The translations under genes and the position numbers were made by a program. Below, piece by piece: positions 12,167-21,204 of a DNA stretch of 34,462 nucleotides. The first letter of the stretch is position 1, and every line of letters begins with the position of its first letter. A model generated the notes under the pieces. It did no database searches and was not told the DNA's origin. It saw only the letters and a list, made by a program, of their open reading frames with translations. Source of the stretch: a virus; the UHGV virus genome UHGV-1637875; one strand, 5' to 3'.

Positions 12167-13072
12167 ATGTTTAAACGTAAATCTACTGCTGAACTTGCTG
12201 CACAAATGGCTAAACTGAATGGCAATAAAGGTTTTTCTTCTGAAGATAAAGGCGAGTGGAAACTGAAACTCGATAATGCGGGTAACGGTCAAGCAGTAAT
12301 TCGTTTTCTTCCGTCTAAAAATGATGAACAAGCACCATTCGCAATTCTTGTAAATCACGGTTTCAAGAAAAATGGTAAATGGTATATTGAAACATGTTCA
12401 TCTACCCACGGTGATTACGATTCTTGTCCAGTATGTCAATACATCAGTAAAAATGATCTGTACAACACTGACAATAAAGAGTACAGTCTTGTTAAACGTA
12501 AAACTTCTTACTGGGCTAATATTCTTGTTGTAAAAGACCCAGCTGCTCCAGAAAATGAAGGTAAAGTATTTAAATATCGTTTCGGTAAGAAAATCTGGGA
12601 TAAAATCAACGCGATGATTGCGGTTGATGTTGAAATGGGTGAAACTCCAGTTGATGTAACTTGTCCGTGGGAAGGTGCTAACTTTGTACTGAAAGTTAAA
12701 CAAGTTTCTGGTTTTAGTAACTACGACGAATCTAAATTCCTGAATCAATCTGCGATTCCAAACATTGATGATGAATCTTTCCAGAAAGAACTGTTCGAAC
12801 AAATGGTTGACCTTTCTGAAATGACTTCTAAAGATAAATTCAAATCGTTTGAAGAACTGAGCACTAAGTTCAGTCAAGTTATGGGAACTGCTGCTATGGG
12901 TGGTGCCGCAGCAACTGCCGCTAAGAAAGCTGATAAAGTTGCTGATGATTTGGATGCATTCAATGTTGATGACTTCAATACAAAAACTGAAGATGATTTT
13001 ATGAGCTCAAGCTCTGGCAGTTCATCTAGTGCTGATGACACGGACCTGGATGACCTTTTGAATGACCTTTAA
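12167..13072 (+). CDS. 32: Single-stranded DNA-binding protein gp32
   Basis: 301 aa, [49 protein letters not shown]..., acidic C-terminal tail ([22 protein letters not shown]); essentially T4 gp32. Confidence 0.95.
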
Positions 13073-14465: not shown

Positions 14466-15292
<827 letters not shown>

Positions 15293-15312
15293 AATAACGC
15301 GTGGCGGAAAAT

Positions 15313-15660
15313 ATGAACTTTAATTATTACCCTATTCTATTAGAAAAAGACGCGAAACAACCAAAATGGCAGGGTCCTCAGTTTATTAAAGGCGTCTATC
15401 AATTAGTAGTTCCTAAAGACAAGATTTATAGTAGTTGTTTCACTGAATCCGCTTGCAGTATTTTCGGTAATAGTTCTCCGTATTGGAATTTTGATATAAA
15501 ACTGGATAGAAATATCGATATTTGGTTGAAAGCCATGGATATTGGCAATATTACGTTTGATGAGAATAATTATCATATTATTGGTCGCTTTTCTAAACGC
15601 GGTAAAGAATTATATTTCACTCCTGAAATCGAAAGAAAATTTGATGCTAAACCGTATTGA
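15313..15660 (+). CDS. Hypothetical protein encoded by an insertion between frd and td
   Basis: 115-aa ORF from the ATG at 15313 (MNFNYYPILLEKDAKQPKWQGPQF...); no motif recognised; weak ribosome-binding site. T4 has no gene here because frd and td overlap. Confidence 0.55.
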   Translation: MNFNYYPILLEKDAKQPKWQGPQFIKGVYQLVVPKDKIYSSCFTESACSIFGNSSPYWNFDIKLDRNIDIWLKAMDIGNITFDENNYHIIGRFSKRGKELYFTPEIERKFDAKPY

Positions 15661-15705
15661 TTATTTAGCTTCATAAAATGTATTATAATTTATATAAGGT
15701 ACTAA

Positions 15706-16566
15706 ATGAAACAATACCAAGATTTAATTAAAGACATTTTTGAAAATGGCTATGAAACCGATGATCGAACAGGCACAGGAACAATTGCTTTGTTCGGTAC
15801 TAAATTACGCTGGGATTTAAGTAAAGGTTTTCCTGCAGTAACAACTAAAAAGCTCGCCTGGAAAGCTTGCATTGCTGAGCTACTTTGGTTTTTATCAGGA
15901 AGCACAAATGTCAATGATTTACGATTAATTCAGCATGATTCATTAATTCAAGGCAAAACAGTCTGGGATGAAAATTACGAAAATCAAGCAAAAGATTTAG
16001 GATACCACATCGGTGAACTTGGTCCAATTTATGGAAAACAATGGCGTGATTTTGGCGGTGTAGACCAAATTGTAGAAGTTATTGATCGTATTAAAAAACT
16101 GCCGAATGATAGGCGACAAATTGTTTCTGCGTGGAATCCAGCTGAACTTAAATATATGGCATTACCGCCTTGTCATATGTTCTATCAGTTTAATGTGCGT
16201 AATGGCTATTTGGATTTGCAGTGGTATCAACGATCAGTAGATGTTTTTCTTGGTCTTCCATTTAATATTGCATCATATGCTGCGTTAGTTCATATTGTAG
16301 CTAAGATGTGTAATCTTATTCCTGGAGATTTGATATTTTCTGGCGGTAATACTCATATCTATATGAATCACGTAGAACAATGTAAAGAAATTTTACGTCG
16401 TGAACCTAAAGAGCTTTGTGAACTGGTAATAGGCGGATTGCCTTATAAATTCCGTTATCTTTCTACTAAAGAACAATTGGAATACATTCTTAAACTCAGG
16501 CCTAAAGATTTCGTTCTCAAAGATTATCAGTCCCACGGTGTCTTGAAAGGAAAAATGGCGGTATAA
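15706..16566 (+). CDS. td: Thymidylate synthase, intronless
   Basis: 286 aa, MKQYQDLIKDIFENGYETDDRTGTGTIALFG...; uninterrupted ORF, so the group I intron and its endonuclease ORF seen in T4 td are absent. Confidence 0.95.
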   Translation: MKQYQDLIKDIFENGYETDDRTGTGTIALFGTKLRWDLSKGFPAVTTKKLAWKACIAELLWFLSGSTNVNDLRLIQHDSLIQGKTVWDENYENQAKDLGYHIGELGPIYGKQWRDFGGVDQIVEVIDRIKKLPNDRRQIVSAWNPAELKYMALPPCHMFYQFNVRNGYLDLQWYQRSVDVFLGLPFNIASYAALVHIVAKMCNLIPGDLIFSGGNTHIYMNHVEQCKEILRREPKELCELVIGGLPYKFRYLSTKEQLEYILKLRPKDFVLKDYQSHGVLKGKMAV

Positions 16567-16853: not shown

Positions 16854-17133
16854 ATATAAATCCGACTTTGATGTTAATATTCACCGTGGTACATTTTGGG
16901 GAAATTACGTCGGTAAAGATGCTGGCAGCCGGGAGGCTGCCATTGAATTATTCAAAAAAGATTTTATACGTCGAATTAAATCCGGAGAAATAACTAAAGC
17001 ACATTTAGAGCCTTTACGTGGAATGAGGCTAGGATGCACATGTAAACCAAAGCCGTGTCATGGTGATATAATAGCTCATATAGTTAACCGATTGTTTAAA
17101 GACGATTTTCAAGTTGAGGACTTATGCAATTAA
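16807..17133 (+). CDS. Hypothetical protein, cysteine/histidine-containing ([11 protein letters not shown])
   Basis: 108-aa ORF; weak ribosome-binding site; 3' end overlaps the nrdA start. Confidence 0.5.
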
Positions 17134-19388
17134 TTAATGTTATCAAAAGTAGTGGTGTTTCTCAAAGCTTTGACCCGCAAAAAATTATTAAAGTTTTATC
17201 TTGGGCAGCTGAAGGAACATCTGTAGATCCTTATGAATTATATGAAAATATTAAATCATATCTCCGTGATGGAATGACCACTGATGACATTCAAACCATT
17301 GTAATTAAGGCTGCTGCGAATTCTATTTCAGTTGAAGAGCCTGATTATCAATATGTAGCTGCGCGCTGTTTAATGTTTGCTCTTCGTAAGCATGTTTATG
17401 GACAATATGAACCACGTTCATTTATTGACCATATTTCTTACTGCGTAAATGAAGGTAAATATGACCCTGAATTGTTGTCAAAATATTCAGCAGAAGAAAT
17501 TACATTTTTAGAATCAAAAATTAAGCACGAGCGGGATATGGAATTTACTTATTCCGGGGCGATGCAATTAAAAGAAAAATATCTAGTTAAAGATAAAACC
17601 ACCGGTCAAATTTATGAAACTCCACAGTTTGCATTTATGACTATTGGAATGGCATTGCATCAAGATGAACCTGTTGATAGATTAAAACATGTTATCCGTT
17701 TTTATGAAGCGGTATCTACTCGACAGATTTCATTACCAACTCCTATTATGGCTGGTTGCCGTACTCCAACTCGGCAGTTTAGTTCATGCGTTGTTATTGA
17801 GGCAGGTGATTCATTAAAGTCTATCAATAAGGCTTCCGCTTCAATTGTTGAATATATCTCTAAACGCGCTGGAATTGGTATTAACGTTGGTATGATTCGT
17901 GCTGAAGGTTCTAAGATTGGCATGGGTGAAGTACGCCATACTGGTGTTATTCCTTTTTGGAAACATTTTCAGACTGCTGTTAAATCATGCTCACAGGGTG
18001 GAATTCGTGGCGGCGCTGCTACTGCTTATTATCCTATTTGGCATTTGGAAGTTGAAAATCTTCTTGTTTTGAAAAATAACAAAGGCGTAGAAGAAAACCG
18101 CATTCGTCATATGGATTATGGTGTTCAACTGAATGATTTGATGATGGAACGTTTTGGAAAGAACGATTACATTACTTTGTTCAGTCCCCATGAAATGGGC
18201 GGAGAGCTTTATTATTCTTATTTTAAAGACCAAGACCGTTTCCGTGAATTATACGAAGCAGCAGAAAAAGACCCTAATATTCGTAAAAAGCGTATTAAAG
18301 CCCGTGAACTATTTGAATTGCTCATGACTGAACGCTCAGGAACAGCAAGGATTTATGTACAGTTCATTGATAATACGAATAACTATACTCCGTTTATTCG
18401 TGAAAAGGCACCTATTCGTCAGAGTAACTTGTGCTGTGAAATTGCTATTCCAACAAATGATGTGAATAGTCCTGATGCTGAAATTGGATTGTGTACTCTC
18501 TCTGCATTCGTACTGGATAATTTTGACTGGCAAGACCAAGATAAAATTAATGAATTGGCAGAAGTCCAGGTTCGTGCTCTTGATAATCTTTTGGATTACC
18601 AAGGATATCCAGTTCCTGAAGCAGAAAAAGCTAAAAAGCGTCGTAACCTCGGTGTAGGTGTTACTAACTATGCAGCTTGGTTGGCAAGTAACTTTGCTTC
18701 TTATGAAGATGCTAACGATTTAACACATGAACTATTTGAGAGATTACAGTATGGACTCATTAAAGCATCCATTAAACTCGCCAAAGAAAAAGGACCTTGT
18801 GAATATTATTCAGACACTCGTTGGTCTCGAGGCGAATTACCTATCGACTGGTACAATAAAAAGATTGACCAAATCGCAGCTCCAAAATACGTTTGTGACT
18901 GGTCGTCGCTGCGGGAAGACCTTAAGCTCTTTGGCATCCGTAATAGCACATTATCAGCACTTATGCCATGTGAGTCATCTTCCCAAGTTTCTAACAGTAC
19001 AAACGGTATCGAGCCTCCACGTGGACCAGTCTCTGTTAAAGAATCAAAAGAGGGCTCCTTTAATCAAGTCGTGCCCAATATTGAGCATAACATAGACCTC
19101 TATGATTATACATGGAAATTAGCTAAGAAAGGTAATAAACCTTATCTTACGCAGGTAGCTATTATGCTGAAATGGGTATGTCAATCAGCTTCAGCGAATA
19201 CATATTATGACCCACAGATTTTTCCAAAAGGAAAGGTTCCAATGTCAATAATGATTGATGATATGCTATACGGATGGTATTATGGCATTAAAAATTTCTA
19301 TTATCATAATACCCGCGATGGTTCTGGTACTGATGATTATGAAATAGAAACTCCAAAAGCTGAAGATTGCGCAGCGTGTAAATTGTAA
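17124..19388 (+). CDS. nrdA: Aerobic ribonucleotide reductase large subunit
   Basis: 754 aa, the same length as T4 NrdA; N-terminal ATP-cone and a conserved NLCCEI active-site region; GAGGA ribosome-binding site. Confidence 0.95.
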   Translation: MQLINVIKSSGVSQSFDPQKIIKVLSWAAEGTSVDPYELYENIKSYLRDGMTTDDIQTIVIKAAANSISVEEPDYQYVAARCLMFALRKHVYGQYEPRSFIDHISYCVNEGKYDPELLSKYSAEEITFLESKIKHERDMEFTYSGAMQLKEKYLVKDKTTGQIYETPQFAFMTIGMALHQDEPVDRLKHVIRFYEAVSTRQISLPTPIMAGCRTPTRQFSSCVVIEAGDSLKSINKASASIVEYISKRAGIGINVGMIRAEGSKIGMGEVRHTGVIPFWKHFQTAVKSCSQGGIRGGAATAYYPIWHLEVENLLVLKNNKGVEENRIRHMDYGVQLNDLMMERFGKNDYITLFSPHEMGGELYYSYFKDQDRFRELYEAAEKDPNIRKKRIKARELFELLMTERSGTARIYVQFIDNTNNYTPFIREKAPIRQSNLCCEIAIPTNDVNSPDAEIGLCTLSAFVLDNFDWQDQDKINELAEVQVRALDNLLDYQGYPVPEAEKAKKRRNLGVGVTNYAAWLASNFASYEDANDLTHELFERLQYGLIKASIKLAKEKGPCEYYSDTRWSRGELPIDWYNKKIDQIAAPKYVCDWSSLREDLKLFGIRNSTLSALMPCESSSQVSNSTNGIEPPRGPVSVKESKEGSFNQVVPNIEHNIDLYDYTWKLAKKGNKPYLTQVAIMLKWVCQSASANTYYDPQIFPKGKVPMSIMIDDMLYGWYYGIKNFYYHNTRDGSGTDDYEIETPKAEDCAACKL

Positions 19389-20029
19389 TGAATTATCAAA
19401 AAATCTATAATGACCTAATTTCCCGAGCTCAGGCTCGGGAACCTTTATCCGAATATAAAGAGACTCATCATATAATCCCTAGATGTATGGGAGGTTCTGA
19501 TGATAAAGAAAATTTAGTTGAATTAACAGGTAGAGAGCATTTTATAGCTCATTGGCTTTTATGCAAAATATATGACACCCCAGGATTAAAGAAAGCTTTT
19601 GGTTTAATGTGCTTGACTGGTAAAAATCGCTCATATAAAATTTCTTCTCAACTATACGAATTAGGTAGACGACGTTTATCTGAAGCTGCTGTAGGACGTG
19701 AAGTTTCTATAGAAACCAGGGAAAAGATAAGTAGAGCTCTTAAAGGAAGGAAATTTACCAAAGAGCATTTAGCTCGCATGAGAAAACCTAAAACCGAAGA
19801 AGCTAAAAAGAATATAGCTGCTGCTAAAGTCGGCGTGCTTAATCCGATGTATGGTACAATCTCTCCGACAAGAGATGTTCCTCATACTAAAGAAACTCGT
19901 GATTTGATTTCTTTGAGAACTAAGCAAAGTATAGAGTATCCGCCTTGTCCGCATTGTGGCAAGAAAGTTAATAAAGGCAATGCTCTAAGATGGCATTATG
20001 ATAAATGTAAATTTAAGGATTCTAAATGA
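19388..20029 (+). CDS. mobE: HNH-family homing endonuclease (MobE-like) inserted between nrdA and nrdB
   Basis: 213 aa; HNH motif HHIIPRCMGGSDDKENLVELTGREHFIAHW; C-terminal CPHCGK zinc-finger-like motif; start overlaps the nrdA stop (TAATG) and stop overlaps the nrdB start (ATGA). Confidence 0.65.
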   Translation: MNYQKIYNDLISRAQAREPLSEYKETHHIIPRCMGGSDDKENLVELTGREHFIAHWLLCKIYDTPGLKKAFGLMCLTGKNRSYKISSQLYELGRRRLSEAAVGREVSIETREKISRALKGRKFTKEHLARMRKPKTEEAKKNIAAAKVGVLNPMYGTISPTRDVPHTKETRDLISLRTKQSIEYPPCPHCGKKVNKGNALRWHYDKCKFKDSK

Positions 20030-21204
20030 GTACAGTTTTTAATACATCCCCTGTTAATATTTTGACTGAGCCGATGTTTTTTGGTTCTGGATTGGGTTTA
20101 GCTCGATATGATATTCAACGGCATAGAGTATTTGAAGAACTTATTGAGAAATCTTTATCATTTTTCTGGCGTCCTGAAGAAGTAAACTTAATGATGGATG
20201 CTGCACAGTTTAATAAGCTTCCTCAATATCAGCAGAATATTTTTACTAATAATCTGAAGTATCAATCACTTCTAGATAGCATTCAGGGTCGTGCACCGTC
20301 TGCTGTACTTATGTCATTGATTTCAGACCCAAGCCTTGATACATGGGTTGCTACATGGACTTTTAGTGAAACCATTCACAGTCGTTCATACACTCATATT
20401 ATGCGAAATCTTTATACTGATCCGTCAAAGGTATTTGATGAGATTGTATTAGATAAAGCTATCATGAAACGTGCTGAATCTATTGGTCGTTATTATGATG
20501 ATGTTCTGGACAAGACACGTATTTGGGAAAACGCCAAAGAAAACTTTAGTTATTTTGCTGAAAATGAATATGATTTAGAAGCATATTCAAACAGTCTCAC
20601 TCATTTGGAAGAATGTAAACGAGACCTGATGAAGTCGCTTTATCTCTGTCTGCACGTTATCAATGCTCTGGAAGCTATTCGTTTTTATGTATCCTTTGCA
20701 TGTACTTTCAACTTCCATAAGAACATGGAAATCATGGAAGGTAATGCGAAGATTATGAAATTTATTGCACGTGATGAGCAGCTTCATCTTAAAGGTACAC
20801 AATATATTATTCGTCAACTTCAATCCGGTACTGATGGTGATGAATGGGTTAAAATTGCCAAAGAGTGTGAACAAGAAGCAGTTGATATTTTCATGGAAGT
20901 TAACCGCCAAGAAAAAGATTGGGCAGTTCATTTATTTAAAGATGGCGATGTTCCTGGATTAAATACAAATAGCATGTGGAGCTTTATTGATTACTTAACT
21001 GTATCTCGTATGAAACAGTGTGGTCTTCCATGCCCGATTACCGATGCTCCGGTTAAACATCCATATCCTTGGATTCGTGAATACCTTAATTCTGATAATG
21101 TTCAATCCGCGCCGCAAGAAGTAGAACTGTCATCTTATCTTGTTGCACAGATTGATAATGATGTTGATGATAAAGTTATGATGAGTTTAAAAAAATATTT
21201 TTAA
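20026..21204 (+). CDS. nrdB: Aerobic ribonucleotide reductase small subunit, intronless
   Basis: 392-aa uninterrupted ORF, MSTVFNTSPVNILTEPMFFGSGLGLARYDIQRH...; no intron. Confidence 0.95.
   Translation: MSTVFNTSPVNILTEPMFFGSGLGLARYDIQRHRVFEELIEKSLSFFWRPEEVNLMMDAAQFNKLPQYQQNIFTNNLKYQSLLDSIQGRAPSAVLMSLISDPSLDTWVATWTFSETIHSRSYTHIMRNLYTDPSKVFDEIVLDKAIMKRAESIGRYYDDVLDKTRIWENAKENFSYFAENEYDLEAYSNSLTHLEECKRDLMKSLYLCLHVINALEAIRFYVSFACTFNFHKNMEIMEGNAKIMKFIARDEQLHLKGTQYIIRQLQSGTDGDEWVKIAKECEQEAVDIFMEVNRQEKDWAVHLFKDGDVPGLNTNSMWSFIDYLTVSRMKQCGLPCPITDAPVKHPYPWIREYLNSDNVQSAPQEVELSSYLVAQIDNDVDDKVMMSLKKYF

Follow-up and report, generated by a model that had tools for sequence, protein, structure and literature searches.

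The analysed window, a stretch of 34,462 nucleotides of viral DNA, comes from the genome of a T4-like phage (Tequatrovirus). Table 1 lists its genes and the features discussed below. The product of td is a full-length thymidylate synthase (Pfam PF00303, E 2.5e-95). No record identical to the window was found in the phage collection; there the best matches to td were Shigella phage ESh25 and Salmonella phage Jbel (99.2%), and the best match across 8.5 kb was about 96% identical.

In phage T4 (NC_000866) td consists of two joined pieces over 1878 nt: exon 1 of 549 nt, ending in ...TTCTTGGGT, and exon 2 of 312 nt, starting with CTACCGTTTAAT, separated by an intron of 1017 nt that starts with TAATTGAGGCC and ends in ...CATAATG. 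The td gene of the window (861 nt) was aligned with spliced T4 td without gaps, giving 796 identical positions out of 861 (92.4%) and 65 mismatches, and the sequences corresponding to exon 1 and exon 2 are contiguous at the position of the T4 intron. The T4 td intron sequence was absent from the whole window in a local blastn search (word size 7), as was any relative of I-TevI in a tblastn search (best E 0.19). Judged by the presence of an intron and/or an I-TevI ORF, this is not a group I intron-containing td. The initial annotation had described td as uninterrupted, and both the colinearity with spliced T4 td and the lack of intron and I-TevI sequences in the window bear this out.

A scan of the window with Rfam at the gathering threshold also reported no group I intron. 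This negative was discounted because a positive control, the same scan of the T4 td and nrdB introns (T4 locus L001, 3900-11200), came out blank as well, and the absence of the intron rests on the alignment and local BLAST rather than on Rfam. The failure of Rfam on the two T4 group I introns is presumably due to their large ORF insertions; for ORF-containing phage introns negative results of this kind are not trustworthy.

Table 1. Genes and features of the td region of the window, and substitutions relative to T4 around the intron insertion site (signed positions are counted from the insertion site)
Feature	Position	Strand	Remarks
gp32	12167-13072		
frd	14711-15292		upstream of td
Additional small ORF	15301-15660		between frd and td
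td, thymidylate synthase, uninterrupted	15706-16566	+	286 aa; ORF list, Pfam PF00303, gap-free alignment with T4
nrdA.2 and nrdA.1 homologues			between td and nrdA
nrdA	17124-19388		
HNH endonuclease gene	19388-20029		between nrdA and nrdB
nrdB	20026-21204		
Unoccupied I-TevI-type homing site, -27 to +11	16228-16265	+	38 bp; 32/38 identical to T4, 38/38 identical to T2
Cleavage motif 5′-CAACG-3′, -27 to -23	16228-16232	+	identical to T4
Approximate primary binding region of the I-TevI DNA-binding domain	16247-16266	+	20 bp; 15/20 identical to T4; exact limits approximated
Exon-1 partner of intron helix P1, -7 to -1	16248-16254	+	TCTTGGT in place of CTTGGGT
Intron insertion site	16254/16255	+	exon 1 ends at 16254 (GGT, Gly183), exon 2 starts at 16255 (CTT, Leu184); exon boundaries mapped from NC_000866
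Substitution (T4 > window)	-22		C>A
Substitution (T4 > window)	-7		C>T
Substitution (T4 > window)	-6		T>C
Substitution (T4 > window)	-4		G>T
Substitution (T4 > window)	+3		A>T
Substitution (T4 > window)	+6		G>A
Substitution (T4 > window)	+18		G>A
Substitution (T4 > window)	+28		A>G; the sole protein change, Thr193Ala

Since the alignment with spliced T4 td is free of gaps, the junction lies after nucleotide 16254, exactly where the initial annotation had put it (codon Gly183), and the mapped T4 exon 1 and exon 2 ends meet there as GGT/CT. All positions are numbered from this insertion site, with -1 at 16254 and +1 at 16255; the 38-bp extent of the recognised site was taken from published work (PMC2988022). 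The T4 homing site as given in that annotation proved correct against NC_000866, and the resemblance to it "with a few substitutions" amounts to 52 matches out of 60 between -30 and +30. The eight substitutions in this interval, seven of them synonymous, are given in Table 1, and there are no insertions or deletions relative to T4 between -27 and +30. Alignment with the I-TevI homing site, which had been proposed as a check, left the bases of the cleavage motif and the spacing unaltered. As judged from the sequences, this resemblance reflects orthology in a conserved coding region and not chance. An allele of T4 td from which the intron has been deleted, the canonical I-TevI homing site, shares with the window the gene, the insertion point Gly183/Leu184, CAACG and the spacing; the window differs from it by six substitutions in 38 bp (eight in 60 bp) and by an exon end that does not pair with the guide sequence of the intron. 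No phage record with a natural uninterrupted T4-type junction was found; apart from spliced mRNA, only laboratory constructs contain it.

It is known that I-TevI binds its 38-bp site as a monomer and that its nicks lie upstream of the insertion site, at distances of 25 and 23 nt (PMC5009752; PMC2988022). The nicks fall in CA^AC^G, and C1 and G5 of 5′-CNNNG-3′ are critical (PMC5009752). In the window C-27, G-23 and the native AAC triplet are all present, and the native 23/25-nt distance from cleavage site to insertion site, which is subject to a distance rule (PMC2988022), is kept. From the published nick positions (PMC5009752), cleavage is predicted at 16229/16230 in the bottom strand and at 16231/16232 in the top strand, which would leave a 2-nt 3′ overhang. 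We also surveyed 80 td loci from viral contigs, in 36 of which the site could be located. In all 36 the Gln-Arg codons read CA[AG][CA]G; the protein sequence therefore constrains CNNNG and prevents its loss by drift.

The 15-bp spacer differs from that of T4 by one change, at its first position (-22). Experiments with a Tev-TALE fusion showed that single spacer substitutions are largely tolerated and that the sensitive positions are 2, 6 and 8, together with the change C3T, and not position 1 (PMC4065259). Binding by I-TevI involves a region of 20 bp that has the insertion site at its centre and is contacted via the minor groove, and the enzyme generally tolerates base changes (PMC2988022). 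Five differences from T4 fall in the approximately 20-bp binding region of the window, at -7, -6, -4, +3 and +6, and the block CC-TTTAATA at +4 to +13 is intact. For comparison, the T4 homing site was aligned to the intron stretch ahead of the I-TevI ORF that matched it best, which is probably the I-TevI operator; the operator is bound by I-TevI with an affinity equal to that of the homing site (PMC2988022). The putative operator and the T4 homing site have 15 of 28 positions in common, centred on CC-TTTAATA. They depart from each other at -7, +3 and +6; at -6 and -4 the two agree with each other but not with the window. The window site may have lost some affinity for I-TevI relative to T4, but the operator alignment is weak evidence either way and is outweighed by crosses made with phage T2.

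All phage T2 records agree with the window at 100% of the 80 bp at 16215-16294, and so do SV76, ESh25, ESh29 and Jbel. Between -213 and +140 T2 td and the window td are without difference. Overall, T2 td (NC_054931, AY262132, AY310907) matches the window at 80/80 positions at the site and at 828/861 positions of the gene, and nearly all of the 33 substitutions are located in the last 170 nt of td. The two phages also have in common a 413-bp spacer between frd and td that carries the extra ORF. They differ in that nrdA of the window is followed by a MobE-like HNH gene, whereas mobE is described as absent from T2 (PMC2790892).

Wilson and Edgell used T2 as the recipient in T2 x T4 crosses and scored the progeny with an I-TevI probe (PMC2790892, Table 2). 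In the cross with wild-type T4 the ratios to input were 2.1 ± 0.3 for I-TevI, 2.1 ± 0.2 for mobE and 2.0 ± 0.3 for I-TevIII; with a T4 mobE deletion they were 2.1 ± 0.3, 1.5 ± 0.3 and 1.6 ± 0.4, respectively (PMC2790892). The 1.5 level was ascribed by the authors to the general exclusion of T2 markers by T4 (PMC2790892). As the I-TevI ratio stays at 2.1 in the mobE deletion cross, entry of the td intron is super-Mendelian and independent of MobE, and it takes place at a site identical to that of the window. These crosses included no I-TevI-null control, and it is the td homing literature at large on which their attribution to I-TevI is based (PMC2790892; PMC2988022). The proposal that this phage would be "a recipient for td intron homing" is thus supported by the intact motif and spacing and by the 2.1-fold recovery of I-TevI at the T2-identical site; with T2 as a strong proxy, we infer that I-TevI would cut exactly this sequence.

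The exons of T4 and of eight further intron-bearing alleles from phage records were then compared with the window. Spliced RB3 td differs from the window td at 19 of 861 positions (842/861 identical), and between -245 and +141 the differences are confined to -7, -6, -4, +3 and +28. Allele a48 is closer still around the site, with differences between -100 and +69 at -7, -6, -4 and +28 only. The window bases -22 A, +3 T, +6 A and +18 A occur in intron-bearing alleles of the RB3 group (RB3, KarlGJung, a48, HP3), and +28 G is found in other intron-bearing alleles (sutha, HMD-9, F1). On this comparison of sequences it is T4, and not the window, that is the unusual allele. Up to the intron, the exons of RB3, T6, PST, KarlGJung and a48 resemble those of the window, with -22 A, +6 A and +18 A among the shared bases; these alleles differ from the window in having a 1016-nt intron with I-TevI and P1-compatible bases (C/T/G) at -7/-6/-4. 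When a chimeric query, composed of the end of exon 1 of the window and the start of the T4 intron, was used, at least 188 phage records covered the junction, with a best identity of 97.5%, and therefore none of these records keeps the window-type exon end. Their exon 1-intron junction is that of window exon 1 save for the P1 bases. The intron-bearing alleles RB3 and a48 would represent natural "after" states of homing into window-like alleles.

Degenerate td introns were observed at the same insertion site in HP3 (L008, about 320 nt), HMD-9 (L009, about 254 nt) and F1 (L010, about 446 nt). All or most of the I-TevI ORF is gone from them, yet no stop interrupts the translated td exons. These introns are stages in the decay of the endonuclease gene.

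Taken together, these comparisons show an ordinary td allele without intron, like that of T2, whose I-TevI homing site is empty and can very probably be cleaved. We consider it very likely that the site would serve as a functional recipient. That the td intron is variably present among T-even phages, and that it homes into intron-less relatives such as T2, has been textbook knowledge since the late 1980s. The allele is thus of a kind already known, one more intron-less td that is identical to T2 at the site, and beyond correct annotation the finding has little importance.

A different reading of the same site is that the allele has partial or full resistance to I-TevI, the synonymous changes at -7, -6, -4, +3 and +6 having been selected for lower affinity, so that the phage would be a poor recipient. 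Five of the 20 bases of the binding region do differ from T4, the window has changed bases at -6 and -4, where the probable operator agrees with the T4 homing site, and the differences from T4 are clustered, with eight between -22 and +28 and none between -123 and -23. However, four of the eight variant bases are present in RB3-group intron-bearing alleles and +28 G in others; the apparent cluster is therefore largely a matter of T4 being the outlier. The remaining three variants are explained by P1 pairing. Local excess of divergence as a sign of selection for resistance was on these grounds (four bases in the RB3 group, +28 G elsewhere, three P1 bases) rejected as the main reading. Moreover, the identical site of T2 receives I-TevI at about 2.1 times input, above the background of 1.5-1.6, and the cleavage motif cannot be lost as long as the Gln-Arg codons are retained. 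The group does contain alleles that look refractory, as shown by the relative RB32 with its heavily recoded site (CAAAGAAGTGTTGACGTG...). For the window we regard resistance as unlikely.

The td gene of RB32 (locus L002, 6358-7218, minus strand) is recoded exactly over the I-TevI site, which reads CAAAG AAGTGTTGACGTGTTCTTGGGC/TTGCCATTCAAC, with the protein motif unchanged. This recoding fits the reduced activity of the Tev-TALE fusion on the RB32 sequence (PMC4065259), and RB32 td is a candidate endonuclease-refractory allele. RB32 and the window are both intron-less in td and encode the same protein motif, WYQRSVDVFLGLPFNIASY, but 14 bases between -24 and +12 differ, including the cleavage motif (CAAAG in RB32) and the Arg and Ser codons. 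Judged by these bases, the window site is not of the RB32 type.

Among the differences from T4, those at -7, -6 and -4 affect the exon part of the intron helix P1, in which -7 to -1 pair with intron positions 15 to 9. Folding of the exon end with the intron start (RNAfold) predicted an 8-bp P1 in 11 out of 11 intron-bearing alleles, at -6.5 to -9.0 kcal/mol; no P1 was predicted by RNAfold for the window exon combined with the T4 intron. Two of the seven pairs between the window exon and the T4 intron guide are broken, -6 C x A14 and -4 U x U12. Substitutions in intron-bearing alleles keep the pairing: A-U replaces G.U at the -4 pair in sutha and L076, U-A replaces U.G at the -5 pair in HP3, and U.G replaces U-A at the -6 pair in STP4-a. 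A P1-compatible version is present in every intron-bearing allele examined. The window codon for Leu182 belongs to the form CTY, which is also found in the intron-less Tequatrovirus alleles AR1, SF2-1, PP01, SH7 and teqhad. In this clade the P1 exon bases differ systematically between intron-less and intron-bearing alleles.

The P1 mismatch need not hinder homing. Positions -7, -6 and -4 sit between the I-TevI cut and the insertion site. Because the cut is made upstream of the insertion site, -22 to -1 would be rewritten from the donor, and the P1 incompatibility would therefore be no barrier to homing; cutting upstream could in this way guarantee a compatible exon context for the newly inserted intron. 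The triple synonymous change at -7/-6/-4 (TTT CTT GGT, as in T2 and the window) could alternatively have been selected as an anti-intron feature rather than have arisen by neutral drift. It abolishes P1 pairing and lies under the zinc-finger/linker footprint of I-TevI; if such selection had operated, either the affinity for I-TevI would be lower or introns brought in with short conversion tracts would be unable to splice, and spread of the td intron in this lineage would be slowed. We consider this very improbable.

Recent precise loss of a td intron, for instance through recombination with a spliced cDNA, would also give an uninterrupted gene, and the ORF-less degenerate td introns of close relatives (about 446, 320 and 254 nt) do indicate that the intron decays in this lineage, but precise loss would leave the P1-compatible CTTGGGT, so that TCTTGGT in the window argues against it, no phage record has an uninterrupted T4-type junction, and the occurrence of the CTY codon for Leu182 in other intron-less Tequatrovirus alleles suggests an old intron-less lineage, which together make recent loss, as opposed to an allele never invaded, extremely unlikely.

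For the intron-less, T2-type allele with an empty homing site, the fate of the site can be outlined by analogy with the established td homing pathway, from which cleavage, homing and co-conversion in this phage are deduced. Co-infection with an intron-bearing relative (T4, T6 or RB3-like) would bring in I-TevI, and a monomer of the enzyme would bind around 16247-16266. It would nick both strands within CAACG at 16228-16232, which lies upstream of the insertion site, at distances of 23 and 25 nt. Resection of the break would be followed by repair from the donor allele, with the intron copied in between 16254 and 16255. In the course of this repair the donor sequence TTC TTG GGT would replace TTT CTT GGT of the window, and the new intron could then form P1 and splice.

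Several differences from T4 were noted at neighbouring loci. In T4 the stop of frd overlaps the start of td; compared with this arrangement, the window has an insertion of 417 bp between these genes (15286-15711). A 9-bp direct repeat, TAAATGAAA, bounds the insertion (at 15286-15294 and 15703-15711) and duplicates the T4 frd/td junction; this repeat was found by direct pattern search. The ORF of the insertion encodes 119 aa (phrog_1928) and has no Pfam match. The same insert is present between frd and td in T2 and RB32, and the RB32 annotation describes it as "flanked by 9 bp repeat". RB3, KarlGJung and a48 have a 348-nt ORF in the same place upstream of td.

Like td, nrdB is uninterrupted in the window: positions 1-662 and 1263-1765 of T4 nrdB match it contiguously, the T4 nrdB intron (I-TevIII) is absent from the window, and the empty site lies near 20699-20702. 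The HNH gene located directly after nrdA occupies the position of T4 mobE and encodes a homing endonuclease of 213 aa with HNH and NUMOD3 domains (phrog_655). The first 47 residues of its product are those of T4 MobE, after which the two diverge (65% over 119 aa), and the product is 72 aa longer; the gene may represent either a variant of MobE or a replacement of the Hef type. The 5′ part of nrdB is 83% identical to T4, compared with 96% for the 3′ part, and this divergent 5′ end could be a self-protection footprint of the adjacent HNH endonuclease.
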